This document shows, piece by piece, positions 5,603-16,573 of a stretch of DNA of 32,000 bases. Origin of the DNA: Pseudoalteromonas tetraodonis (GTDB taxonomy: Bacteria > Pseudomonadota > Gammaproteobacteria > Enterobacterales > Alteromonadaceae); the NCBI RefSeq assembly GCF_002310835.1, contig NZ_CP011041.1:2130001-2162000 (forward strand), written 5' to 3'. The stretch's first letter is position 1; every line of letters starts with the position of its first letter. The position numbers were made by a program, and so were the translations under genes. Under the pieces are notes generated by a model. The model was not told where the DNA came from. It saw only the letters and a list, made by a program, of their open reading frames with translations, and searched no databases.

Positions 5603-6634
5603 ATGATACAATTGAAGAACAAAAAAGCGCTTACACTTCTGCGGATTGCAGCTCTCATTGTTACTCTTACTAGCATATACATTTTTGCCCCTTGGCAGTT
5701 TGCTTTATATTACTTTCACCCACTGCCCGCTAATGTTCAAGCACAAACACAAGAGGCTATTGAACAAGGAGTCGATGGCATTATTGTGTATATTCATAAA
5801 CAAGGACTGCAACCTGAATATTTTACAAATGGTTGGCATAATAGAGAGCACAAAATACCCGCTTACCCTAGTGCACTTTTTAAAATTGGCAGCATTCGAA
5901 AGTTATATGATGCAGCAGCTTTAACTAAACTTTCAGCCGCTGGACGTATTGATGTAGATAAAACACTGGCTGATTATCTTCCATCGTTAATTGGACGCAT
6001 TGAAAACGCAGATAAAATAACACTACGAATGATGGTAAAACACAAAAGTGGCATACCCAATTACACAGACACTGATAATTTCGATTGGTCAATCACCTAC
6101 CCTGACCCACTTGCATTAGTACTCGATAAACCCGCTGATTTTAGCCCTGATGCTGACTATGGCTATTCTAATACCAATTATTTGTTGCTGCGAAAAATTA
6201 TGTCTAACGTGCTGGGTTATGATCATAACCAATATATTAAAGATGAAATTTTAACGCCTCTGGGCCTAACGCATACGTTTTCATCTGTACATGAAATCAA
6301 TTTAGTAGATTTGATGAGTGGTTACTACGTAGGTTATGAGAATGATTTTAAAGCACTCGATCAAGGCTATGTGGCAACCGCACAAGATGTAGGCGACTTT
6401 ATTTTTGCTTTAAACAAAGGCACTTTTTTCGACGAACAAGAGCAAGCTTTGTATGCATCACTTTATAAGTATGAACACACAGGTTGGGTATTAGGGTATT
6501 CAAGCATTGCTCGTTATTATAAAGATATCGATACAGTCGTTGTGCAGTTTATAAATACTAATGGCGATGATACTGTGATGCTCACAGAAATAATTTATAA
6601 TCGGATTATTGATATTTTAACTGCGCAGCAATAG
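5603..6634 (+). CDS. Serine hydrolase of the beta-lactamase/PBP (class C-like) family, membrane-anchored or secreted
   Basis: 343 aa with an N-terminal hydrophobic anchor. Three family motifs are present in order: S-x-x-K (SIRK), Y-x-N (YSN) and H/K-T-G (HTG). Confidence 0.75.
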   Translation: MIQLKNKKALTLLRIAALIVTLTSIYIFAPWQFALYYFHPLPANVQAQTQEAIEQGVDGIIVYIHKQGLQPEYFTNGWHNREHKIPAYPSALFKIGSIRKLYDAAALTKLSAAGRIDVDKTLADYLPSLIGRIENADKITLRMMVKHKSGIPNYTDTDNFDWSITYPDPLALVLDKPADFSPDADYGYSNTNYLLLRKIMSNVLGYDHNQYIKDEILTPLGLTHTFSSVHEINLVDLMSGYYVGYENDFKALDQGYVATAQDVGDFIFALNKGTFFDEQEQALYASLYKYEHTGWVLGYSSIARYYKDIDTVVVQFINTNGDDTVMLTEIIYNRIIDILTAQQ

Positions 6635-7763: not shown

Positions 7764-7839
7764 TGGCGTCCCCAAGGGGATTCGAACCCCTGTTACCGCC
7801 GTGAAAGGGCGGTGTCCTAGGCCTCTAGACGATGGGGAC
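7764..7839 (-). tRNA. tRNA-Glu(UUC) copy 1
   Basis: Reverse complement reads GTCCCCATCGTCTAGAGGCCTAGGACACCGCCCTTTCACGGCGGTAACAGGGGTTCGAATCCCCTTGGGGACGCCA. Cloverleaf with anticodon loop CUUUCAC and encoded CCA. Near-identical to E. coli tRNA-Glu. Confidence 0.97.
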
Positions 7840-7932
7840 ACAGAATATGTGTCACTAGGACAACTGAATGGTTTGACTCGTTTCAGGCGAGCTGCTCAAT
7901 AACACTGCACTTCCCTATTTAAAATAGGTAAG

Positions 7933-8008
7933 TGGCGTCCCCAAGGGGATTCGAACCCCTGTTACCGCCGTGAAAGGGCGGTGTCCTAGGCCTCTAGACG
8001 ATGGGGAC
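7933..8008 (-). tRNA. tRNA-Glu(UUC) copy 2
   Basis: Same 76-nt sequence as 7764..7839, offset 169 bp. Confidence 0.97.
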
Positions 8009-8101
8009 ACAGAATATGTGTCACTAGGACAACTGAATGGTTTGACTCGTTTCAGGCGAGCTGCTCAATAACACTGCACTTCCCTATTTAAAATAGGTAA
8101 G

Positions 8102-8177
8102 TGGCGTCCCCAAGGGGATTCGAACCCCTGTTACCGCCGTGAAAGGGCGGTGTCCTAGGCCTCTAGACGATGGGGAC
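8102..8177 (-). tRNA. tRNA-Glu(UUC) copy 3
   Basis: Same 76-nt sequence, 169-bp period. Confidence 0.97.
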
Positions 8178-8270
8178 ACAGAATATGTGTCACTAGGACA
8201 ACTGAATGGTTTGACTCGTTTCAGGCGAGCTGCTCAATAACACTTCACTTCCCTATTTAAAACAAGTAAG

Positions 8271-8346
8271 TGGCGTCCCCAAGGGGATTCGAACCCCTGT
8301 TACCGCCGTGAAAGGGCGGTGTCCTAGGCCTCTAGACGATGGGGAC
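8271..8346 (-). tRNA. tRNA-Glu(UUC) copy 4
   Basis: Same 76-nt sequence, 169-bp period. Confidence 0.97.
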
Positions 8347-8439
8347 ACAGAATATGTGTCACTAGGACAACTGAATGGTTTGACTCGTTTCAGGCGAGCT
8401 GCTCAATAACACTGCACTTCCCTATTTAAAATAGGTAAG

Positions 8440-8515
8440 TGGCGTCCCCAAGGGGATTCGAACCCCTGTTACCGCCGTGAAAGGGCGGTGTCCTAGGCCT
8501 CTAGACGATGGGGAC
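8440..8515 (-). tRNA. tRNA-Glu(UUC) copy 5
   Basis: Same 76-nt sequence, 169-bp period. Confidence 0.97.
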
Positions 8516-8695
8516 GCAGAAATTGATTTGCAAATCACTGATTTGCTATTTCTGCGTAAGATGAGCCGAGCCTGCGAGGCGAATGGCATTATCTTCTCAG
8601 AAACATTTTCTGTGTCACTAGGACAACTGAATGGTTTGACTCGTTTCAGGCGAGCTGCTCAATAACACTGCACTTCCCTATTTAAAATAGGTAAG

Positions 8696-8771
8696 TGGCG
8701 TCCCCAAGGGGATTCGAACCCCTGTTACCGCCGTGAAAGGGCGGTGTCCTAGGCCTCTAGACGATGGGGAC
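8696..8771 (-). tRNA. tRNA-Glu(UUC) copy 6
   Basis: Same 76-nt sequence. Separated from copy 5 by an enlarged 180-nt spacer. Confidence 0.97.
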
Positions 8772-8864
8772 ACAGAATATGTGTCACTAGGACAACTGAA
8801 TGGTTCGACTCGTTTCAGGCGAGCTGCTTAATAACACTGCACTTCCCTATTTAAAATAGGTAAG

Positions 8865-8940
8865 TGGCGTCCCCAAGGGGATTCGAACCCCTGTTACCGC
8901 CGTGAAAGGGCGGTGTCCTAGGCCTCTAGACGATGGGGAC
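8865..8940 (-). tRNA. tRNA-Glu(UUC) copy 7
   Basis: Same 76-nt sequence, 169-bp period. Confidence 0.97.
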
Positions 8941-9083
8941 ACAGAATATGTGTCACTAGGACAATCGATTAGTTTTACTCACATCCTGAGCTTTAAGGTA
9001 ATGGCGTATAGTACAAATAAAGACTCGAGCTTTATGTGTTACGCTATTTTCTCGGTAAAACCGCCTTTAACTAAAAAGTTAAG

Positions 9084-9159
9084 TGGCGTCCCCAAGGGGA
9101 TTCGAACCCCTGTTACCGCCGTGAAAGGGCGGTGTCCTAGGCCTCTAGACGATGGGGAC
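9084..9159 (-). tRNA. tRNA-Glu(UUC) copy 8
   Basis: Same 76-nt sequence. A unique 143-nt spacer separates it from copy 7. Confidence 0.97.
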
Positions 9160-9195
9160 ACAGAAAACTGTTACCCTAGGACAAACACTAAAAAT

Positions 9196-9271
9196 TGGTG
9201 GAGCTATGCGGGATCGAACCGCAGACCTCTTCGCTGCCAGCGAAGCGCTCTCCCAGCTGAGCTATAGCCCC
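9196..9271 (-). tRNA. tRNA-Ala(GGC)
   Basis: Reverse complement reads GGGGCTATAGCTCAGCTGGGAGAGCGCTTCGCTGGCAGCGAAGAGGTCTGCGGTTCGATCCCGCATAGCTCCACCA. G3:U70 Ala identity pair, anticodon GGC, encoded CCA. First gene of the leftward operon. Confidence 0.97.
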
Positions 9272-9327
9272 AACTTATTCAATACGCTCGGTGATAATCA
9301 CGTCGTGTATCGCTTAGTGCGGGGCGC

Positions 9328-9356
9328 ATTCTATGCACCCCCCAAAATAAAGTCAA
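9328..9356 (-). promoter_or_regulatory. Sigma70 promoter of the Ala-Glu tRNA operon
   Basis: The minus strand reads TTGACT-17 nt-TAGAAT followed by the GC-rich discriminator GCGCCCCGC. It lies about 55 nt upstream of tRNA-Ala and resembles the rrn P1-type TATAATGCGCCACC architecture. Confidence 0.7.
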
Positions 9357-9864
9357 CAGTTTTTTATGCGACATTATTTAAATGGTTTAAATTTCAACAA
9401 ACTGGCTATCATACGTGCTAAAAAACAGATTTTCATACTAATTTAGATGTCATGTTGCGCTTTACGTTGTTGTACTCGCCACATGTATACGACTAAGTAC
9501 CCTATTCAACCGATAATATGAGTTTGAATATGATTTAAAGGGTATACATTTATATGCAAATTAGCTTGGTGCTGTTTTACTACTAAAAAAGCGCTGTTCA
9601 TTCGCATGTTAAACTTTAAGTAACTTTTTATTATCCGCTAATTTGTATCACGCAATACAATTATTGAAAGTTAGCCTTTTATTACATAAATATTTTATTG
9701 TTTATCCGACCACTAATGACATCTATTTAGTCTACGCCGCCGACTTTAAATAAACATTAAGCTTAACAATTGTTCGTTTAATATTAGTTTGTTGATAAAG
9801 TGAACACCGTTCGCACTGTATTGTTTATAAAAGCTTCACTCAGCACATTTTTATCATTCAAGTG

Positions 9865-9892
9865 TTGACACATTTGCAACTCTATCTATAAT
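9865..9892 (+). promoter_or_regulatory. Sigma70 promoter of the tRNA-Val array
   Basis: Consensus TTGACA (9865-9870)-16 nt-TATAAT (9887-9892) followed by the discriminator AGCGCCCC. AT-rich UP-like sequence lies upstream. It is about 40 nt upstream of the first Val gene. Confidence 0.8.
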
Positions 9893-9934
9893 AGCGCCCC
9901 ACAACAACGCAGCAATGTGGTGTTGTTTAGATGC

Positions 9935-10010
9935 GGGTGATTAGCTCAGTTGGGAGAGCATCGCCCTTACAAGGCGAGGGTCACTGGTTCAAGTCCAGTA
10001 TCACCCACCA
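9935..10010 (+). tRNA. tRNA-Val(UAC), type A, acceptor fully paired
   Basis: GGGTGATTAGCTCAGTTGGGAGAGCATCGCCCTTACAAGGCGAGGGTCACTGGTTCAAGTCCAGTATCACCCACCA. Cloverleaf with anticodon loop CUUACAA and encoded CCA. Acceptor pairs GGGTGAT with ATCACCC. Confidence 0.97.
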
Positions 10011-10042
10011 CATTTTAATGTGTCGTATCTAAGATTCTATAT

Positions 10043-10127
10043 GGGCGTTAGCTCAGTTAGAAAAAAGAGAGCTCACCGTTATTTACAAGTAACGGCAAGG
10101 TTCACTGGTTAAAGTCCAGTACTACTA
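10043..10127 (+). pseudogene. tRNA-Val-like degenerate element P1
   Basis: GGGCGTTAGCTCAG... has an enlarged D-loop lacking GG, an extended anticodon stem CCGTTA/TAACGG around TTTACAAG, and T-loop TTAAAGT. There is no 3' acceptor strand, which is replaced by an AT hairpin. Confidence 0.6.
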
Positions 10128-10158
10128 AAATTTAATAGTAGCGTTTGAATTTATATGT

Positions 10159-10234
10159 GGGTGATTAGCTCAGTTGGGAGAGCATCGCCCTTACAAGGCG
10201 AGGGTCACTGGTTCAAGTCCAGTATCACCCACCA
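10159..10234 (+). tRNA. tRNA-Val(UAC), type A
   Basis: Identical to 9935..10010. Confidence 0.97.
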
Positions 10235-10286
10235 CATATAAAACCTATTGTTATATTAATAGTGATATGTATTAAAATTGTAATAT

Positions 10287-10374
10287 GGGTCGTTAGCTCA
10301 GTTACAAGAAATGAGAGCATCACCGCTATTTACAAGTAACGGCGAAGTTCACTGGTTAAAGTCCAGTACTATTT
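10287..10374 (+). pseudogene. tRNA-Val-like degenerate element P2
   Basis: GGGTCGTTAGCTCAGTTACAAGAAATGAGAGCATCACCGCTATTTACAAGTAACGGCGAAGTTCACTGGTTAAAGTCCAGT followed by the ACTATT..AATAGT hairpin. No strand complementary to GGGTCGT is present. Confidence 0.6.
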
Positions 10375-10404
10375 ATTTTAATAGTAGCGTTTTAATTTAT
10401 ATGT

Positions 10405-10480
10405 GGGTGATTAGCTCAGTTGGGAGAGCATCGCCCTTACAAGGCGAGGGTCACTGGTTCAAGTCCAGTATCACCCACCA
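10405..10480 (+). tRNA. tRNA-Val(UAC), type A
   Basis: Identical to 9935..10010, 246 bp after the previous Val gene. Confidence 0.97.
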
Positions 10481-10532
10481 CATATAAAATCTATTATTAT
10501 GTTAATAGTGATTTGTATTAAAATTGTAATAT

Positions 10533-10620
10533 GGGTCGTTAGCTCAGTTACAAGAAATGAGAGCATCACCGCTATTTACAAGTAACGGCGAAGTTCACTG
10601 GTTAAAGTCCAGTACTATTT
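10533..10620 (+). pseudogene. tRNA-Val-like degenerate element P3
   Basis: Identical to P2, 246 bp downstream. Confidence 0.6.
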
Positions 10621-10650
10621 ATTTTAATAGTAGCGTTTTAATTTATATGT

Positions 10651-10726
10651 GGGTGATTAGCTCAGTTGGGAGAGCATCGCCCTTACAAGGCGAGGGTCAC
10701 TGGTTCAAGTCCAGTACGACCCACCA
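10651..10726 (+). tRNA. tRNA-Val(UAC), hybrid: type A 5' strand with type B 3' strand
   Basis: Val body and anticodon are intact, but the acceptor is GGGTGAT vs ACGACCC. This gives G5:G68 and A6:C67 mismatches. CCA is encoded. Confidence 0.75.
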
Positions 10727-10761
10727 TTCTTTGAATGGTGCATATTACAAGATATCTAAAT

Positions 10762-10847
10762 GGGTGATTAGCTCAGTTAGATAAAGAGAGCATCACCGCT
10801 ATTTACAAGTAACGGCGAGGTTCACTGGTTGAAGTCCAGTACTATTT
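10762..10847 (+). pseudogene. tRNA-Val-like degenerate element P4
   Basis: Same architecture as P1-P3 but with a GGGTGAT 5' end. D-loop AGTTAGATAAAGA, T-loop TTGAAGT. The 3' acceptor is replaced by the ACTATT..AATAGT hairpin. Confidence 0.55.
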
Positions 10848-10875
10848 TTATAATAGTTTGTTTTGATTTATATGT

Positions 10876-10951
10876 GGGTGATTAGCTCAGTTGGGAGAGC
10901 ATCGCCCTTACAAGGCGAGGGTCACTGGTTCAAGTCCAGTATCACCCACCA
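10876..10951 (+). tRNA. tRNA-Val(UAC), type A
   Basis: Identical to 9935..10010. Confidence 0.97.
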
Positions 10952-11000
10952 CATATAAAACCTATTATTATGTTAATAGTCATGTGTAAATTTGTAATAT

Positions 11001-11076
11001 GGGTCGTTAGCTCAGTTGGGAGAGCATCGCCCTTACAAGGCGAGGGTCACTGGTTCAAGTCCAGTATCACCCACCA
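11001..11076 (+). tRNA. tRNA-Val(UAC), hybrid acceptor (B 5' strand / A 3' strand), unit 1 of 17
   Basis: GGGTCGTTAGCTCAGTTGGGAGAGCATCGCCCTTACAAGGCGAGGGTCACTGGTTCAAGTCCAGTATCACCCACCA. The body is identical to type A. The acceptor has a C5:C68 mismatch and a G6:U67 wobble. Confidence 0.85.
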
Positions 11077-11125
11077 CATATAAAACCTATTATTATGTTA
11101 ATAGTCATGTGTAAATTTGTAATAT

Positions 11126-11201
11126 GGGTCGTTAGCTCAGTTGGGAGAGCATCGCCCTTACAAGGCGAGGGTCACTGGTTCAAGTCCAGTATCACCCACC
11201 A
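11126..11201 (+). tRNA. tRNA-Val(UAC), hybrid acceptor, unit 2
   Basis: Identical to 11001..11076, 125-bp period. Confidence 0.85.
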
Positions 11202-11250
11202 CATATAAAACCTATTATTATGTTAATAGTCATGTGTAAATTTGTAATAT

Positions 11251-11326
11251 GGGTCGTTAGCTCAGTTGGGAGAGCATCGCCCTTACAAGGCGAGGGTCAC
11301 TGGTTCAAGTCCAGTATCACCCACCA
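11251..11326 (+). tRNA. tRNA-Val(UAC), hybrid acceptor, unit 3
   Basis: Identical to 11001..11076, 125-bp period. Confidence 0.85.
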
Positions 11327-11375
11327 CATATAAAACCTATTATTATGTTAATAGTCATGTGTAAATTTGTAATAT

Positions 11376-11451
11376 GGGTCGTTAGCTCAGTTGGGAGAGC
11401 ATCGCCCTTACAAGGCGAGGGTCACTGGTTCAAGTCCAGTATCACCCACCA
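11376..11451 (+). tRNA. tRNA-Val(UAC), hybrid acceptor, unit 4
   Basis: Identical to 11001..11076, 125-bp period. Confidence 0.85.
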
Positions 11452-11500
11452 CATATAAAACCTATTATTATGTTAATAGTCATGTGTAAATTTGTAATAT

Positions 11501-11576
11501 GGGTCGTTAGCTCAGTTGGGAGAGCATCGCCCTTACAAGGCGAGGGTCACTGGTTCAAGTCCAGTATCACCCACCA
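11501..11576 (+). tRNA. tRNA-Val(UAC), hybrid acceptor, unit 5
   Basis: Identical to 11001..11076, 125-bp period. Confidence 0.85.
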
Positions 11577-11625
11577 CATATAAAACCTATTATTATGTTA
11601 ATAGTCATGTGTAAATTTGTAATAT

Positions 11626-11701
11626 GGGTCGTTAGCTCAGTTGGGAGAGCATCGCCCTTACAAGGCGAGGGTCACTGGTTCAAGTCCAGTATCACCCACC
11701 A
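11626..11701 (+). tRNA. tRNA-Val(UAC), hybrid acceptor, unit 6
   Basis: Identical to 11001..11076, 125-bp period. Confidence 0.85.
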
Positions 11702-11750
11702 CATATAAAACCTATTATTATGTTAATAGTCATGTGTAAATTTGTAATAT

Positions 11751-11826
11751 GGGTCGTTAGCTCAGTTGGGAGAGCATCGCCCTTACAAGGCGAGGGTCAC
11801 TGGTTCAAGTCCAGTATCACCCACCA
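11751..11826 (+). tRNA. tRNA-Val(UAC), hybrid acceptor, unit 7
   Basis: Identical to 11001..11076, 125-bp period. Confidence 0.85.
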
Positions 11827-11875
11827 CATATAAAACCTATTATTATGTTAATAGTCATGTGTAAATTTGTAATAT

Positions 11876-11951
11876 GGGTCGTTAGCTCAGTTGGGAGAGC
11901 ATCGCCCTTACAAGGCGAGGGTCACTGGTTCAAGTCCAGTATCACCCACCA
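11876..11951 (+). tRNA. tRNA-Val(UAC), hybrid acceptor, unit 8
   Basis: Identical to 11001..11076, 125-bp period. Confidence 0.85.
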
Positions 11952-12000
11952 CATATAAAACCTATTATTATGTTAATAGTCATGTGTAAATTTGTAATAT

Positions 12001-12076
12001 GGGTCGTTAGCTCAGTTGGGAGAGCATCGCCCTTACAAGGCGAGGGTCACTGGTTCAAGTCCAGTATCACCCACCA
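12001..12076 (+). tRNA. tRNA-Val(UAC), hybrid acceptor, unit 9
   Basis: Identical to 11001..11076, 125-bp period. Confidence 0.85.
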
Positions 12077-12125
12077 CATATAAAACCTATTATTATGTTA
12101 ATAGTCATGTGTAAATTTGTAATAT

Positions 12126-12201
12126 GGGTCGTTAGCTCAGTTGGGAGAGCATCGCCCTTACAAGGCGAGGGTCACTGGTTCAAGTCCAGTATCACCCACC
12201 A
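12126..12201 (+). tRNA. tRNA-Val(UAC), hybrid acceptor, unit 10
   Basis: Identical to 11001..11076, 125-bp period. Confidence 0.85.
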
Positions 12202-12250
12202 CATATAAAACCTATTATTATGTTAATAGTCATGTGTAAATTTGTAATAT

Positions 12251-12326
12251 GGGTCGTTAGCTCAGTTGGGAGAGCATCGCCCTTACAAGGCGAGGGTCAC
12301 TGGTTCAAGTCCAGTATCACCCACCA
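12251..12326 (+). tRNA. tRNA-Val(UAC), hybrid acceptor, unit 11
   Basis: Identical to 11001..11076, 125-bp period. Confidence 0.85.
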
Positions 12327-12375
12327 CATATAAAACCTATTATTATGTTAATAGTCATGTGTAAATTTGTAATAT

Positions 12376-12451
12376 GGGTCGTTAGCTCAGTTGGGAGAGC
12401 ATCGCCCTTACAAGGCGAGGGTCACTGGTTCAAGTCCAGTATCACCCACCA
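12376..12451 (+). tRNA. tRNA-Val(UAC), hybrid acceptor, unit 12
   Basis: Identical to 11001..11076, 125-bp period. Confidence 0.85.
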
Positions 12452-12500
12452 CATATAAAACCTATTATTATGTTAATAGTCATGTGTAAATTTGTAATAT

Positions 12501-12576
12501 GGGTCGTTAGCTCAGTTGGGAGAGCATCGCCCTTACAAGGCGAGGGTCACTGGTTCAAGTCCAGTATCACCCACCA
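12501..12576 (+). tRNA. tRNA-Val(UAC), hybrid acceptor, unit 13
   Basis: Identical to 11001..11076, 125-bp period. Confidence 0.85.
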
Positions 12577-12625
12577 CATATAAAACCTATTATTATGTTA
12601 ATAGTCATGTGTAAATTTGTAATAT

Positions 12626-12701
12626 GGGTCGTTAGCTCAGTTGGGAGAGCATCGCCCTTACAAGGCGAGGGTCACTGGTTCAAGTCCAGTATCACCCACC
12701 A
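12626..12701 (+). tRNA. tRNA-Val(UAC), hybrid acceptor, unit 14
   Basis: Identical to 11001..11076, 125-bp period. Confidence 0.85.
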
Positions 12702-12750
12702 CATATAAAACCTATTATTATGTTAATAGTCATGTGTAAATTTGTAATAT

Positions 12751-12826
12751 GGGTCGTTAGCTCAGTTGGGAGAGCATCGCCCTTACAAGGCGAGGGTCAC
12801 TGGTTCAAGTCCAGTATCACCCACCA
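12751..12826 (+). tRNA. tRNA-Val(UAC), hybrid acceptor, unit 15
   Basis: Identical to 11001..11076, 125-bp period. Confidence 0.85.
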
Positions 12827-12875
12827 CATATAAAACCTATTATTATGTTAATAGTCATGTGTAAATTTGTAATAT

Positions 12876-12951
12876 GGGTCGTTAGCTCAGTTGGGAGAGC
12901 ATCGCCCTTACAAGGCGAGGGTCACTGGTTCAAGTCCAGTATCACCCACCA
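12876..12951 (+). tRNA. tRNA-Val(UAC), hybrid acceptor, unit 16
   Basis: Identical to 11001..11076, 125-bp period. Confidence 0.85.
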
Positions 12952-13000
12952 CATATAAAACCTATTATTATGTTAATAGTCATGTGTAAATTTGTAATAT

Positions 13001-13076
13001 GGGTCGTTAGCTCAGTTGGGAGAGCATCGCCCTTACAAGGCGAGGGTCACTGGTTCAAGTCCAGTATCACCCACCA
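13001..13076 (+). tRNA. tRNA-Val(UAC), hybrid acceptor, unit 17
   Basis: Identical to 11001..11076. The following spacer diverges (ATGCTAATAGTCATGTTTTAAAGTTG). Confidence 0.85.
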
Positions 13077-13126
13077 CATATAAAACCTATTATTATGCTA
13101 ATAGTCATGTTTTAAAGTTGTAATAT

Positions 13127-13202
13127 GGGTCGTTAGCTCAGTTGGGAGAGCATCGCCCTTACAAGGCGAGGGTCACTGGTTCAAGTCCAGTACGACCCAC
13201 CA
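13127..13202 (+). tRNA. tRNA-Val(UAC), type B, acceptor fully paired
   Basis: GGGTCGT...ACGACCCACCA. The body is identical to the other Val genes and the acceptor pairs perfectly. Last gene of the array, followed by the CACCATT-CTTTG-AATGGTG hairpin. Confidence 0.95.
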
Positions 13203-13607: not shown

Positions 13608-15239
13608 ATGTCTAAAAATATTTTTAATGAAGCAAAAATACTGATTGTAGAGGAGCAGCCACTTGCTCAAAGCTACATGAAACAGTCGCTCGAAAAAATT
13701 GGCTTTGGACATATGCGTTTTGCAGATCATGCTCTAGCGGCAAAAGAACAATGCTTACATGAAGAATTTGACTTGGTAATTTGCTCTTTTAATCTAAGCA
13801 AACGCCAAGATGGCTACCAGCTTTATGAAGAATTACGCGCTAAAGCATTAATAAAACACTCTACTGGGTTTATTTTTACATCTGCGGAAACTAGCGGAGA
13901 GTTAGTTCACAGTGTGTTAGAACTTCAACCCGATGACTTTTTAGTAAAACCTTTCTCTGTACAAGAGCTAAGAGTGCGCATAGAGCGTATTCTCAAACGC
14001 AAAAGCGACTTAAAAGCTATATACACTTTAATTGATGATGATAACCAGTCTAAAGCATTAAAACAAATTAATGCTCAGCTTGATAAAAGTAATAAATACA
14101 GCCCTATTCTGCTTAGATTAAAAGGTAATATTTTACTGGCGCTAAAACAAAACCAAGAAGCGAAAGACTTTTTTAAATCAGTTTTGAATATTCAAAAGTT
14201 TGCATGGGCAAAAGTAGGATTGGTAGAAGCCTTAATTGCTAACAATGAGCATATTTTGGCTCAACGCATGCTTAAAACAATGCTTGAACGTAATGAAACT
14301 CGACTAGTTGCATTAGACTTATTAGGGCGTTTAGAAATAAAATTAAACCAGTTTGAGTTAGCTCAAGAGTTTTTAAGTCAAGCAGCCCATATTGCCCCGC
14401 GTAATATAGACCGTCAAAAGTCACTGAACAGCGTATCGCTCATTAATAGAGATTATGAAACCAGCTACTTAACTCAAAAGGATATTGCCACTTTTGCTAA
14501 GTACTCTATGCATGATAGCCCAGACATTTATTTAAATGCCGCTCGTGCTGGGATTGATTTTGCACTAACCACAGATCAAACTGACCAAATAAACAGAATT
14601 TCCCGTCAAACAAATAAATATATTAATGAGCTAAAAACACAATTCCCAACCAGTAATGCACAAACTCAAATCGATGTGCTCAATGCGCGCCTTTATTATT
14701 TAAAAGATGAACATAAAAAAGCGAAACAGTTGATTGAACAACTTGATGACAGCGATACTCAAATACGTTCAGTCGATGGTGCCCTAGATAAAGCAAAAGC
14801 ATTACATGAATTAGGTTTTCATCAGAAGGCGCAAGCGCTATTTAGCCAAATTATTGATCATTGCGAACGCCACCCAAGTAGGAGCGACGCGACGTACTTG
14901 CGTTATATACAGCAACAGCAAAGTGAAAGACGTGATATTAAAATGGGGCCGAAGGAACTTAACAATCATGCAGTTAAACAGTTTGAGCGTGGCCAGTTAA
15001 ATGTTGCTTTAGAGGCATTCAGCCAAGCCTTTAGGGTCATGCCACACAACCCAAGTATCGCACTTAACTTATTACAGTGTTTAGTGGATAAATCAAAAAA
15101 ACAGGGGGGCTCTTTCAATAGTCTATTGGCTCAAAAGTGCTTTAAACTATTAAAAAAATCACCCTTAGCAGAAGAGCAATCAGAGCGGTTCGATAAACTA
15201 CTTCAGATTGCTAAAGAAATGAAACTAGAGATTAGCTAG
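13608..15239 (+). CDS. Receiver-domain (atypical, Asp-less) plus TPR-repeat protein
   Basis: The ORF is open from GTG 13581. ATG 13608 (MSKNIF...) is an equally plausible start. The N-terminal 120 aa are CheY-like (ILIVEE...DLVICSFNLSKRQDG...FTSAE...LVKPF). The remainder is helical with TPR-like repeats. Confidence 0.8.
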   Translation: MSKNIFNEAKILIVEEQPLAQSYMKQSLEKIGFGHMRFADHALAAKEQCLHEEFDLVICSFNLSKRQDGYQLYEELRAKALIKHSTGFIFTSAETSGELVHSVLELQPDDFLVKPFSVQELRVRIERILKRKSDLKAIYTLIDDDNQSKALKQINAQLDKSNKYSPILLRLKGNILLALKQNQEAKDFFKSVLNIQKFAWAKVGLVEALIANNEHILAQRMLKTMLERNETRLVALDLLGRLEIKLNQFELAQEFLSQAAHIAPRNIDRQKSLNSVSLINRDYETSYLTQKDIATFAKYSMHDSPDIYLNAARAGIDFALTTDQTDQINRISRQTNKYINELKTQFPTSNAQTQIDVLNARLYYLKDEHKKAKQLIEQLDDSDTQIRSVDGALDKAKALHELGFHQKAQALFSQIIDHCERHPSRSDATYLRYIQQQQSERRDIKMGPKELNNHAVKQFERGQLNVALEAFSQAFRVMPHNPSIALNLLQCLVDKSKKQGGSFNSLLAQKCFKLLKKSPLAEEQSERFDKLLQIAKEMKLEIS

Positions 15240-15600
15240 GGCCTGTTGACATTTGCGGATTAAAATTTGTTCAAGCAAGGGACGATTTAATCGCGGCGTG
15301 AGGTTTGTAACCTAGTGGGCTCGATAACTGCTCCTGTGTTATTCTACTGGCTTACATCCATGTAAGAATAAGTAAAAGCCGAGCAAAGCTTCCGCGTCCT
15401 GCTCACGCCCCTTACCTACATCCATGTAGGCAACAAAGAGTTAATCGTCCCTTGGCAGAACCCTTTGGGCAGCGCCTGTTTGGAATTGATGCTCCGTTAT
15501 CGCCCATTTATGGGGAATAACCACACCACATAGGCTCTGCCTTGCCTAAATACCAAACAGACTGCTGCAAATTTAACCTTGAAAGGCCAACAGGCCCTAG
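15236..15600. mobile_element. MITE/ERIC-like 365-bp structured non-coding element with 13-bp perfect terminal inverted repeats
   Basis: CTAGGGCCTGTTG (15236-15248) is the exact reverse complement of CAACAGGCCCTAG (15588-15600). Nested internal inverted repeats are AAGGGACGATTTAA/TTAATCGTCCCTT and GGCGTGAG/CTCACGCC. There are two copies of the hairpin (C)TACATCCATGTA(G). No credible ORF. Confidence 0.6.
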
Positions 15601-16037
15601 AGCTTTTTCATTGCCAGTGCGTTTACACAGTAGCGCAAGCCGGAAGGAAGTGGGCCATCAGGGAAAATATGCCCTAAGTGCGCATCACACACATTACAAA
15701 CAACTTCAACTCGCTCCATGCCATGGCTGTTATCCATTACATACCCTATCGCATCAACCGTTGCAGGTTGTGTAAATGAAGGCCATCCTGTGCCACTATC
15801 AAACTTTTCATCCGCATCAAACAGTAGGTTGTCACAACACACACACACGTACTTTCCCGGTTCTAATAGTGTGCAACTAGTTGAACTATTTGGGCGCTCT
15901 GTGCCTTTTTTACGGGTCACGTAATATTGCTCTTCGTTTAACAGTTCACGCCATTGCTGATCTGTTTTAACTACTTTTTGAACCGGAGTCGGATTGCCAT
16001 GGTTGGCAAAATTAACAATATCATTCCATTTCAACAT
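15597..16037 (-). CDS. msrB: Peptide-methionine (R)-S-oxide reductase
   Basis: 146 aa. The GTERP motif, two CxxC pairs (CVCC, CNVC), GWPSF and RYCVNALAM (catalytic Cys) are typical of MsrB/SelR. Confidence 0.92.
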   Translation of the reverse strand: MLKWNDIVNFANHGNPTPVQKVVKTDQQWRELLNEEQYYVTRKKGTERPNSSTSCTLLEPGKYVCVCCDNLLFDADEKFDSGTGWPSFTQPATVDAIGYVMDNSHGMERVEVVCNVCDAHLGHIFPDGPLPSGLRYCVNALAMKKL

Positions 16038-16132: not shown

Positions 16133-16573
16133 CTATTTAAACACTATACGGTGCTTCTCTGTTGCTGTAAGTATACGGCTTATATAAGCGTGTAATTGAG
16201 CTTGACTACCAGGAATACTCACGCTTAATTGCCTGTCATTATTACTATGCACTATTAGCTCATCGTCTTTTATCTCTATTGACTCAATATTGCTGATGAC
16301 TAACCAATGCGGGCCATTCTTTTTATCAAACAACCCGGTTAAACTAAAAACAAACAAATGCTGCGCATCACGCTGAATAAAGTTACGCAGCGGGTTACGC
16401 ATTTTAAATAACGGCGTTAACCGGTAACAGCACGAACAAAATACCACTATCCACAATAGCAATATCCCTTTAAACCAAATATGTTCGCCTAATGATAAAA
16501 AATAGCCAACGCAGATAAGAATCAGCCCTATAAAGGCCACTACTTGCGCTATTTTTTTATTAATAGTGTGCAT
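16133..16573 (-). CDS. Small membrane protein of unknown function (2 TM + soluble C-terminal domain)
   Basis: 146 aa with two N-terminal hydrophobic helices. Co-directional with and 6 bp from the preceding ORF. Confidence 0.55.
   Translation of the reverse strand: MHTINKKIAQVVAFIGLILICVGYFLSLGEHIWFKGILLLWIVVFCSCCYRLTPLFKMRNPLRNFIQRDAQHLFVFSLTGLFDKKNGPHWLVISNIESIEIKDDELIVHSNNDRQLSVSIPGSQAQLHAYISRILTATEKHRIVFK

Follow-up and report, generated by a model that had tools for sequence, protein, structure and literature searches.

A 363-bp spacer between two convergent genes of Pseudoalteromonas tetraodonis as a probable IS5-mobilised miniature element of marine Gammaproteobacteria

The window analysed here is a stretch of 32,000 nucleotides from Pseudoalteromonas tetraodonis (contig NZ_CP011041.1, positions 2,130,001 to 2,162,000), in which a gene combining a response-regulator receiver with TPR domains (hereafter RR-TPR) converges on msrB, whose product carries a SelR domain. 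Both identities were proposed in an initial annotation made from the sequence and are confirmed by Pfam. The spacer between these genes holds a structured element that is very probably a non-autonomous miniature inverted-repeat transposable element (MITE) of 363 bp, from a family widespread in marine Alteromonadales and Vibrionales and presumably mobilised by an IS5-family transposase. The coordinates of its parts are collected in Table 1.

The ends of the element lie within perfect 13-nt inverted repeats, CTAGGGCCTGTTG (15236-15248) and CAACAGGCCCTAG (15588-15600), which continue as 32-nt arms with 78% complementarity. The long-range complementary pairs AAGGGACGATTTAA/TTAATCGTCCCTT and GGCGTGAG/CTCACGCC both fall within the left hairpin arm, where module M2 contains CTCACGCC together with the hairpin CCTACATCCATGTAGG (15415-15430), which is nearly identical to the hairpin CTTACATCCATGTAAG of M1. 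No credible open reading frame (ORF) is present, the sole one listed (15542-15775, plus strand) entering msrB in antisense. All these features (repeats, stops, stem pairs, hairpins and lack of an ORF) had been correctly placed by the initial annotation. It had also delimited an element of 365 bp; its repeats and stops are borne out, but the conserved unit, TAGGG...CCCTA (15237-15599), measures 363 bp, the C at 15236 and the G at 15600 being target bases that flank it. A family profile (nhmmer), built from an alignment called A2 (61 copies of the 268-bp class, 273 columns), detects a single copy in the window and matches it over 15237-15321 and 15429-15599.

Table 1. Coordinates of the element, its parts and the two flanking genes in the window
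Feature	Position	Strand	Basis or remark
RR-TPR gene	13608..15239	+	Pfam Response_reg and TPR; TAG stop at 15237-15239
msrB, SelR domain	15597..16037	-	Pfam; stop reads CTA on the plus strand, 15597-15599
Complete MITE copy, 363-bp class, TA to TA inclusive, TAGGGCCTGTTG...CAACAGGCCCTA	15237..15599		Homology with copies at unrelated loci stops there
Left TA of the duplicated target	15237..15238		With the first G of the element gives the TAG stop of RR-TPR
Right TA of the duplicated target	15598..15599		With the last C of the element gives CTA, the msrB stop on the minus strand
Left terminal inverted repeat (TIR), 5' strand of the terminal stem	15237..15269		Helix 1: 28 pairs, 11 compensatory
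Right TIR, 3' strand of the terminal stem	15568..15599		Pairs with the left TIR
Left hairpin arm, helices 2-5 of the family model	15270..15460		Enlarged by modules M1 and M2
Module M1, 48 nt, only in the 363-bp class	15322..15369		Size-class alignment; terminal hairpin CTTACATCCATGTAAG (15351-15366)
Module M2, 47 nt, in the 315- and 363-bp classes	15383..15429		Size-class alignment; GCAA repeat flanks
Small conserved CCC-NNN-GGG hairpin at the junction of the two arms	15461..15469		Helix 6, 98% paired, loop variable
Right hairpin arm, helices 7-10	15470..15567		Conserved blocks CTGCCTTG, AAATACC and CTGCTGCAAA, part of the search pattern
Block of 233 bp deleted in the short allele	15248..15480		Direct repeats AGGGCCTGTT (15238-15247) and AGCGCCTGTT (15471-15480)

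Related copies are numerous and dispersed. Searches with blastn in PLSDB revealed full-length copies (74-94% identity) in Pseudoalteromonas, where the records of chromosome II or megaplasmids have 8-21 such places each, and the apparently partial matches obtained in Vibrio and Catenovulum are complete elements that have the same ends and layout and other stem sequences. Alignment of five copies indicates that homology ends precisely at TAGGG on the left and at CCCTA on the right, the flanks being unrelated. Furthermore, a conserved-motif scan of 185,579 species genomes led to at least 120 stretches, and the matches listed belong to at least eight genera (Pseudoalteromonas, Vibrio, Colwellia, Thalassotalea, Catenovulum, Shewanella, Motilimonas and Litorilituus). 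From these listed matches, 102 complete copies were extracted, which serve as the sample for the counts of sizes, targets and flanks given below. They come from the same genera except Litorilituus, and all of them run from TAGGG to CCCTA. Conservation of the three blocks of the right arm is partly an ascertainment effect, since these blocks belonged to the search pattern. Each genome probably harbours tens of copies, and Alteromonadales are rich in MITEs, with a median of 27 per genome (2024 census, PMC11602168). The blastn count in relatives that the initial annotation had recommended yields many copies with unrelated flanks.

The copies fall into discrete size classes. About 61 of the 102 measure 266-269 bp, 20 measure 314-318 bp and seven, like the window copy, 362-363 bp, while a class of ~282 bp (about eight copies) is found in Vibrio. 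The main classes are nested: a core of 268 bp gives 315 bp by addition of the 47-nt M2 and 363 bp by further addition of the 48-nt M1. The two modules are located close to the left-arm apex, each with a terminal YTACATCCATGTAR hairpin; M2 is also found in copies from Catenovulum and Thalassotalea. According to the family profile, 29 of 30 occurrences of the hairpin motif lie inside family members. No copy was found in the phage and viral collections searched. In the same way, Rfam gave nothing at the gathering threshold and, up to E = 10, only a spurious match to Bacillaceae-1 (E = 6), so that reclassification as a known non-coding RNA (ncRNA), an outcome the initial annotation had allowed for, did not occur. 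The searchable literature holds no individual description of the family, and its terminal sequences appear in no relevant paper.

Two side observations concern the sequence of the copies themselves. A Colwellia-type copy (L129, 6817-6905) is broken by unrelated DNA right after its internal apex ...GTAGCCTA; the apex CCTAG is itself a YTAR site and may have served as an insertion target. A GATC (Dam site) lies in the terminal repeat (TGTTGATCTTT) of about half of the MITE copies (e.g., L090, 4879-5146), the others having GACC, and in that of the insertion sequences (ISs) of Pseudoalteromonas and Alteromonas described below (e.g., L159); the internal block GATCGCGGCG is conserved too. Transposition could conceivably be under methylation control.

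The element is mobile, as its precise presence or absence between related strains shows. Reconstructed empty sites, made of left flank, TA and right flank, were used as queries. In the spacer of ~260 bp between dkgB and an MFS gene, three related strains display two independent insertion polymorphisms. Site A is filled in HL-AS1 (363 bp; L013, 2502-2864) and empty in Bsw20308 and CuT4-3, where it reads ...actgtt-TA-aagttttacg. Site B, located ~110 bp from it, is filled in Bsw20308 by a 266-bp copy in the opposite orientation (L147) and empty in HL-AS1 and CuT4-3 (...tttcaaggt-TA-acagaag). In both empty alleles, TA occurs once and is preceded by T and followed by A. For the cstA sites of HL-AS2 and CuT4-3, divergence of the flanks prevents a comparison of filled and empty alleles to the base. 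Empty sites, which the initial annotation had advised looking for, are thus found in relatives at A and B, and also in outgroups at the window locus.

The location between convergent genes and the long hairpin would also suit ordinary intergenic DNA that is conserved without being mobile, for instance a locus-specific bidirectional terminator. The probability of this is negligible: the element occupies more than 100 unrelated loci in at least eight genera, is missing from orthologous loci of outgroups, is polymorphic for presence and absence, and has no terminator-like T-tract.

Of the 102 copies, 80 have TA at either end. A pyrimidine precedes the left TA in 97 (C in 69, T in 28) and a purine follows the right TA in 91 (G in 47, A in 44). 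These outer bases vary independently, cTAg being observed in 31 copies for ~32 expected, and none of the 102 is flanked by a direct repeat of at least 3 nt. The element thus targets Y-TA-R and duplicates TA alone; the CTAG...CTAG of the window is one instance of this rule, and not a 4-bp duplication, because no copy has a duplication beyond TA. The initial annotation had considered that the CTAG might be a 4-bp target-site duplication, which would make the element a MITE of an IS5-group transposase duplicating 4 bp. The CTAG at both ends of the window copy and the frequent presence of IS copies in CTAG speak for this. It is nevertheless very improbable, given that C and G outside TA occur together only as often as independence predicts, that identical flanking repeats of at least 3 nt are lacking in the whole sample, and that short-allele orthologues of the window locus have TTAG at their left end. 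The 4-bp duplication (YTAR) that goes with the IS5 group of the IS5 family was looked for across the 102 copies and rejected.

ISs sharing the termini of the MITE came to light by chance in a control scan of metagenomes. Two contigs read TA, then GGGCCTGTTGACGTTTGAG..., then an ORF starting MPRLLLTDEHWSKLKPIML..., and this contig end corresponds to genes that bear the label IS5 family transposase. Four IS5-family ISs (L157-L160) with TAGGGYSTGTTG termini have ~14-22 terminal bases and the TA/CTAG flanks in common with the MITE; such ISs are ~860-875 bp long (861-880 bp as measured) and encode a transposase of 249-253 aa (WP_309169457.1-like), in which Pfam detects DUF4096 and DDE_Tnp_1 domains (249-aa proteins of L157 and L158). 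One, on a Halomonas plasmid, is 861 bp long, has TAGGGCCTGTTGACGTTTC at both ends and lies in C-TA-G, as does ISPa67 from a Raoultella plasmid (ends TAGGGTCTGTTGCC). Another comes from Pseudoalteromonas sp. HL-AS1, where it is full-length on chromosome II, in a record with 12 MITE places. Its ends are TAGGGCGTGTTGATCTTTGTGG and TAGGGGCTGTTGATCTTTGTAG, its flanks C-TA...TA-A, and its terminus is identical at 21 of 22 bases to the Pseudoalteromonas MITE terminus TAGGGCGTGTTGACCTTTGTGG. In the window copy, the first ~22 nt of the left TIR are common to the termini of these ISs. Homologues of the transposase were detected by tblastn in 1,328 plasmid records, including one on an Alteromonas macleodii plasmid, the distant ones being labelled IS427 family; such group labels ('ISPa67 family', 'IS427 family') are annotation only.

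These common ends suggest that an IS5-family enzyme (IS427/IS1031-like) is the best candidate mobiliser. As the similarity is limited to ~22-24 terminal nt, the MITE did not simply arise from the IS through internal deletion. A full-length IS with the same TIR, another item proposed for checking at the outset, was found, and the initial assignment to IS5 holds at the level of the family (IS5 annotation, DUF4096 and DDE_Tnp_1 domains) while being wrong about the 4-bp duplication. As a separate observation, on the Oceanisphaera plasmid pA (L156, ~1510-1545) a sequence resembling a right end, ...CCTCAACAGGCCC, joins an IS5-family left end, GGGTCTGTTGAGG, through one TA, which could represent two elements placed end to end or two joined IS ends.

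Mobilisation by a transposase of the IS630/Tc1 family would suit the strict TA duplication and the preference for C-TA-G. This family inserts exclusively at TA, with TA duplication (PMC2170065), and IS630 itself prefers TA within CTAG (Tenzen and Ohtsubo 1991, as cited in PMC2170065). This origin is nonetheless improbable, being outweighed because the MITE has its termini in common with IS5-family ISs: the same termini and flanks are borne by four of them, one of which resides in a MITE-bearing Pseudoalteromonas genome, and no IS630-type element with TAGGGYSTGTTGA termini turned up, in work that included no systematic IS630 search.

At the window locus, all close relatives with an identical MsrB are filled, by the long form or by a short form with a 125-nt gap. 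The nearest empty orthologues, at ~80% protein identity, have a 4-nt spacer. The junction reads ...agtaaa TAA (AACC) CTA gagctttttcattgcc in Pseudoalteromonas sp. MM1 and ...aaa TAG (GATT) TTA tagcttttt in P. carrageenovora, with a gap of 4 nt in each, while the gap is 26 nt in P. xiamenensis, which is also empty. The right flank of the window copy, TA-GAGCTTTTTCATTGCC, corresponds to the empty site CCTAGAGCTTTTTCATTGCC of sp. MM1, including the stop context CTAGAGC. The msrB-side flank of sp. MM1, with its C-TA-G context, is thus identical to that of the window, which gives good support to an insertion into the TA where msrB stops.

According to the initial annotation, the two genes had shared one palindromic CTAG before the insertion. 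The single shared CTAG is a plausible candidate for the ancestral state. The nearest empty orthologues have 4-nt spacers, and the predicted empty allele, GAGATTAGYTAGAGCTTTTTCATTGC, was not found in the metagenome collection, which does contain filled alleles of that lineage.

The short form is a derived, locus-specific deletion, since no other family member has its architecture. Short alleles (L001, L004, L005 and L151) read TAGGGCCTGTT/TGGAATTG...CCCTA and retain both termini and the right arm. In sister strains, the remnant of the window insertion measures 131 bp (e.g., L001, 6441-6567), one of the 10-nt direct repeats lying in the left terminus and the other internally. The base at the deletion junction is polymorphic (TAGGGCC in L001 and L004, TAGCGCC in L005), which may reflect two deletion events or a later mutation. 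Apart from these alleles, several metagenome and Logan contigs (L007-L010) carrying this msrB end inside the element, 42-92 nt beyond the stop (locus 6481-6531); this fits assembly breaks due either to the repeat or to the coexistence of long and short alleles.

The insertion also affects how the two genes end. In the element-bearing lineage, the RR-TPR protein terminates in ...KEMKLEIS* (window 15213-15239) and its stop codon is partly supplied by the first base of the element. In element-free outgroups it ends in ...KEMKLDIQNSSK or ...QNPDK (L139, 3621-3647; L141, 2173-2199) and is four residues longer. The regeneration of both stops, which had been noticed in the initial annotation, is accounted for by the initial G and final C of the element next to the duplicated TA. 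According to the initial annotation, both flanking mRNAs would in addition bear 3' UTRs that are structured and mutually complementary. Of the independent element ends, ~6% fall on the stop codon that closes a long ORF, whereas 1.4% of TAR trinucleotides overall do so, and stops at both ends are found at the window locus only. Stop-codon targeting as a special property of the family was considered and rejected, such an excess being expected for a YTAR-targeting element once intragenic insertions have been purged.

The interior of the element is strongly structured. The window copy folds with z-scores of -5.6 (plus strand) and -6.9 (minus strand), none of 100 shuffles being as stable. Of the 58 pairs that RNAalifold predicts on alignment A2, 38 show compensatory changes, and a fuller structure comprises 94 pairs in 10 helices, 49 of these pairs having changed on both sides. 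Paired cells represent 94.4% of the total, against 35-45% when the partners are slid by 1-3 columns, and the observed value was reached by none of 500 shuffles on any measure. The fold consists of a 28-pair terminal stem formed by the TIRs, the left arm (helices 2-5), the CCC/GGG mini-hairpin and the right arm (helices 7-10). Compensatory pairs are found in helices 3 (12 of 16), 4 (6 of 8), 7 (7 of 19), 9 (6 of 6) and 10 (3 of 4). Stems of copies from Vibrio, Catenovulum and Pseudoalteromonas differ wholly in sequence and keep their complementarity.

Such covariation, present in every long helix and across two bacterial orders, together with very stable predicted folds on both strands, raises the idea that the conservation is due to a structured ncRNA or a cis-acting RNA module (3'-end stabiliser, RNase target or insulator) rather than to transposition. 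Convergent contexts make up 20 of the 64 that were resolved, a modest excess over the 110 of 581 seen among gene pairs; this points the same way, as does the distance of 4 nt between the outgroup genes, which implies that both transcripts must enter the element here. Several observations argue against this RNA explanation. Exceptions on pairs predicted by both strands are balanced between the G.U type (104) and the C.A type (108), form a mosaic helix by helix and favour neither strand; the copies show a random direction with respect to adjacent genes (16 codirectional, 20 opposite). No promoter-like or terminator-like site, T-tract included, was found in or around the window copy, and Rfam remained silent even at the permissive threshold mentioned above. 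Moreover, the TA duplication, the empty sites and the IS-type termini are those of a sequence that spreads as DNA. A strand-specific RNA was rejected on account of the balanced and mosaic wobble-type exceptions and of the random orientation, and the profile characterises a mobile element that is structured and symmetric, as opposed to an ncRNA gene read from one strand. The RNA explanation is unlikely as an account of the conservation, yet it is not exclusive of the MITE, as it concerns what maintains the fold. The latter could be kept by a need of propagation, by benefit or neutrality when the element is transcribed, or partly by shared ancestry. That the two-arm fold is functionally required, either because the transposition machinery recognises folded single-stranded DNA or because an RNA module protects or insulates the 3' ends of genes in convergent or tandem arrangement, is doubtful though conceivable. 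In the second case, the element would be retained by the host; in either, the optional hairpin modules of 47-48 nt would tune this function.

The best overall explanation is the MITE. An IS5-family transposase of the IS427-like group would bind the common termini and move the element in trans, by a cut-and-paste process with a 2-nt staggered cut at TA. At the window locus, the element would have entered the TA of the msrB stop, in its C-TA-G context, its first G and last C recreating TAG on both strands; the msrB stop would have been kept, and RR-TPR would now end at the left TA followed by G. The internal fold would be under selection, perhaps because propagation needs it, or because it renders the insert innocuous or beneficial to two convergent transcripts that enter it. 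The 363-bp form corresponds to the 268-bp core with its two apex modules, and in sister strains the same copy has lost 233 bp through recombination between the 10-nt direct repeats. In this the mobile repeat foreseen in the initial annotation, a MITE or ERIC-like element, is upheld by its copy number, lack of coding capacity, TIRs, empty sites and the IS with the same termini.

Several points weigh against this explanation. The left side of the window insertion does not align with any empty allele. Because the outgroup RR-TPR is four residues longer and the DNA is unalignable, one has to suppose a further event, either a deletion or sequence divergence, that preceded, accompanied or followed the insertion. 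The IS and the MITE cease to be similar after ~24 nt, and ~1.08 Mb of MITE-bearing loci, examined for strictly or loosely paired termini and for repeated ORFs, contained no IS copy. What points to mobilisation by an IS5-family enzyme is, in all, the common termini and the common target, and TA-only duplication is a hallmark of the IS630/Tc1 family as well (PMC2170065). Finally, selection on the fold is deduced from the covariation of copies that are related, and common descent can inflate such a signal.

The element is real but ordinary: neither gene is damaged by the insertion, and no new kind of system is revealed. It defines a MITE family, absent from Rfam, whose ends are invariably TAGGG...CCCTA and whose 268-bp core may carry up to two modules. 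This family accounts for unannotated structured spacers and for contig breaks in assemblies of Pseudoalteromonas, Vibrio and Colwellia. It is a source of strain-level insertion markers and flags genes whose stop codon or C-terminus comes from an element. It also provides a clean example of how an element with a YTAR target, a first G and a last C is harmless on TAA or TAG stops.

Some other features of the window deserve mention. An ORF of 146 aa (16133-16573, minus strand), without Pfam match, separates msrB from a DUF2919 gene; it is conserved and syntenic in all examined Pseudoalteromonas loci that retain msrB, P. xiamenensis excepted. Upstream of RR-TPR, very large tandem tRNA arrays extend over 7764-13202. 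The minus-strand array (7764-9271) comprises eight tRNA-Glu(TTC) and one tRNA-Ala(GGC), and the plus-strand array (9935-13202) consists of 23 consecutive tRNA-Val(TAC), mostly with an exact 125-bp period.

Compared with known elements, the family presents the usual features of bacterial MITEs: a size of 268-363 bp (below ~600 bp), absence of coding capacity, TIRs, TA duplication, dispersed copies, polymorphism and a matching IS. Elements of the REP/RAYT or IS200/IS605 type, which have subterminal hairpins and neither TIRs nor duplication, are ruled out by the perfect TIRs and the TA duplication. MITEs derived from IS630/Tc1-mariner elements are alike in their strict TA duplication and, as regards IS630 itself, in the preference for CTAG (PMC2170065), whereas the termini of the present family match those of IS5-family ISs.

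ERIC (IRU) sequences of Enterobacteriaceae and Vibrionaceae are likewise non-coding, intergenic, dispersed and structured as imperfect palindromes. They have size variants resulting from internal insertions and can be co-transcribed with their neighbours. A blastn search of 5,426 E. coli genomes, all of them carriers of ERIC, gave no match to the present family, which is therefore not ERIC by sequence. ERIC has been listed as a MITE (PMC10969869). With ~127 bp and a single hairpin, it differs from this family, which has a 268-bp core, a three-domain fold and a candidate transposase partner.

Correia elements (CREE/NEMIS) of Neisseria display TA duplication, TIRs and variants due to internal deletion; they frequently lie near gene ends or overlap them and form a long hairpin when transcribed. 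The present family is alike in its TA duplication, TIRs, length variants, position at gene ends and folding. Its sequence and hosts are unrelated to theirs, it is larger and branched, and its termini are common to IS5-family ISs, while Correia elements are not known to have an identified transposase.

Eukaryotic PIF/Harbinger transposons, with their Tourist MITEs, have their bacterial relative in the IS5 family, and the GGGCCTGTT-type terminus presumably resembles Tourist/PIF termini. A grouping of the IS5 family with Harbinger has been published (PMC12730594). Within this family, the partner has the characters of the small ISs of the IS427/IS1031-like group, i.e., DUF4096 and DDE_Tnp_1 domains in ~0.8-0.9 kb. 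IS1031-type elements are reported on 3-nt sites (PMC2516522), in contrast with the duplication restricted to TA seen here. The IS5-related MITEs (IS427/IS1031-like; 'ISPa67 family') share with the present family the same TAGGGYSTGTTGA termini, the TA flanks in CTAG or CTAA, a small size, the lack of coding sequence and the many copies. The family described here differs from them by having only ~22-24 terminal nt in common with the IS, a covarying two-arm interior and optional modules of 47-48 nt.

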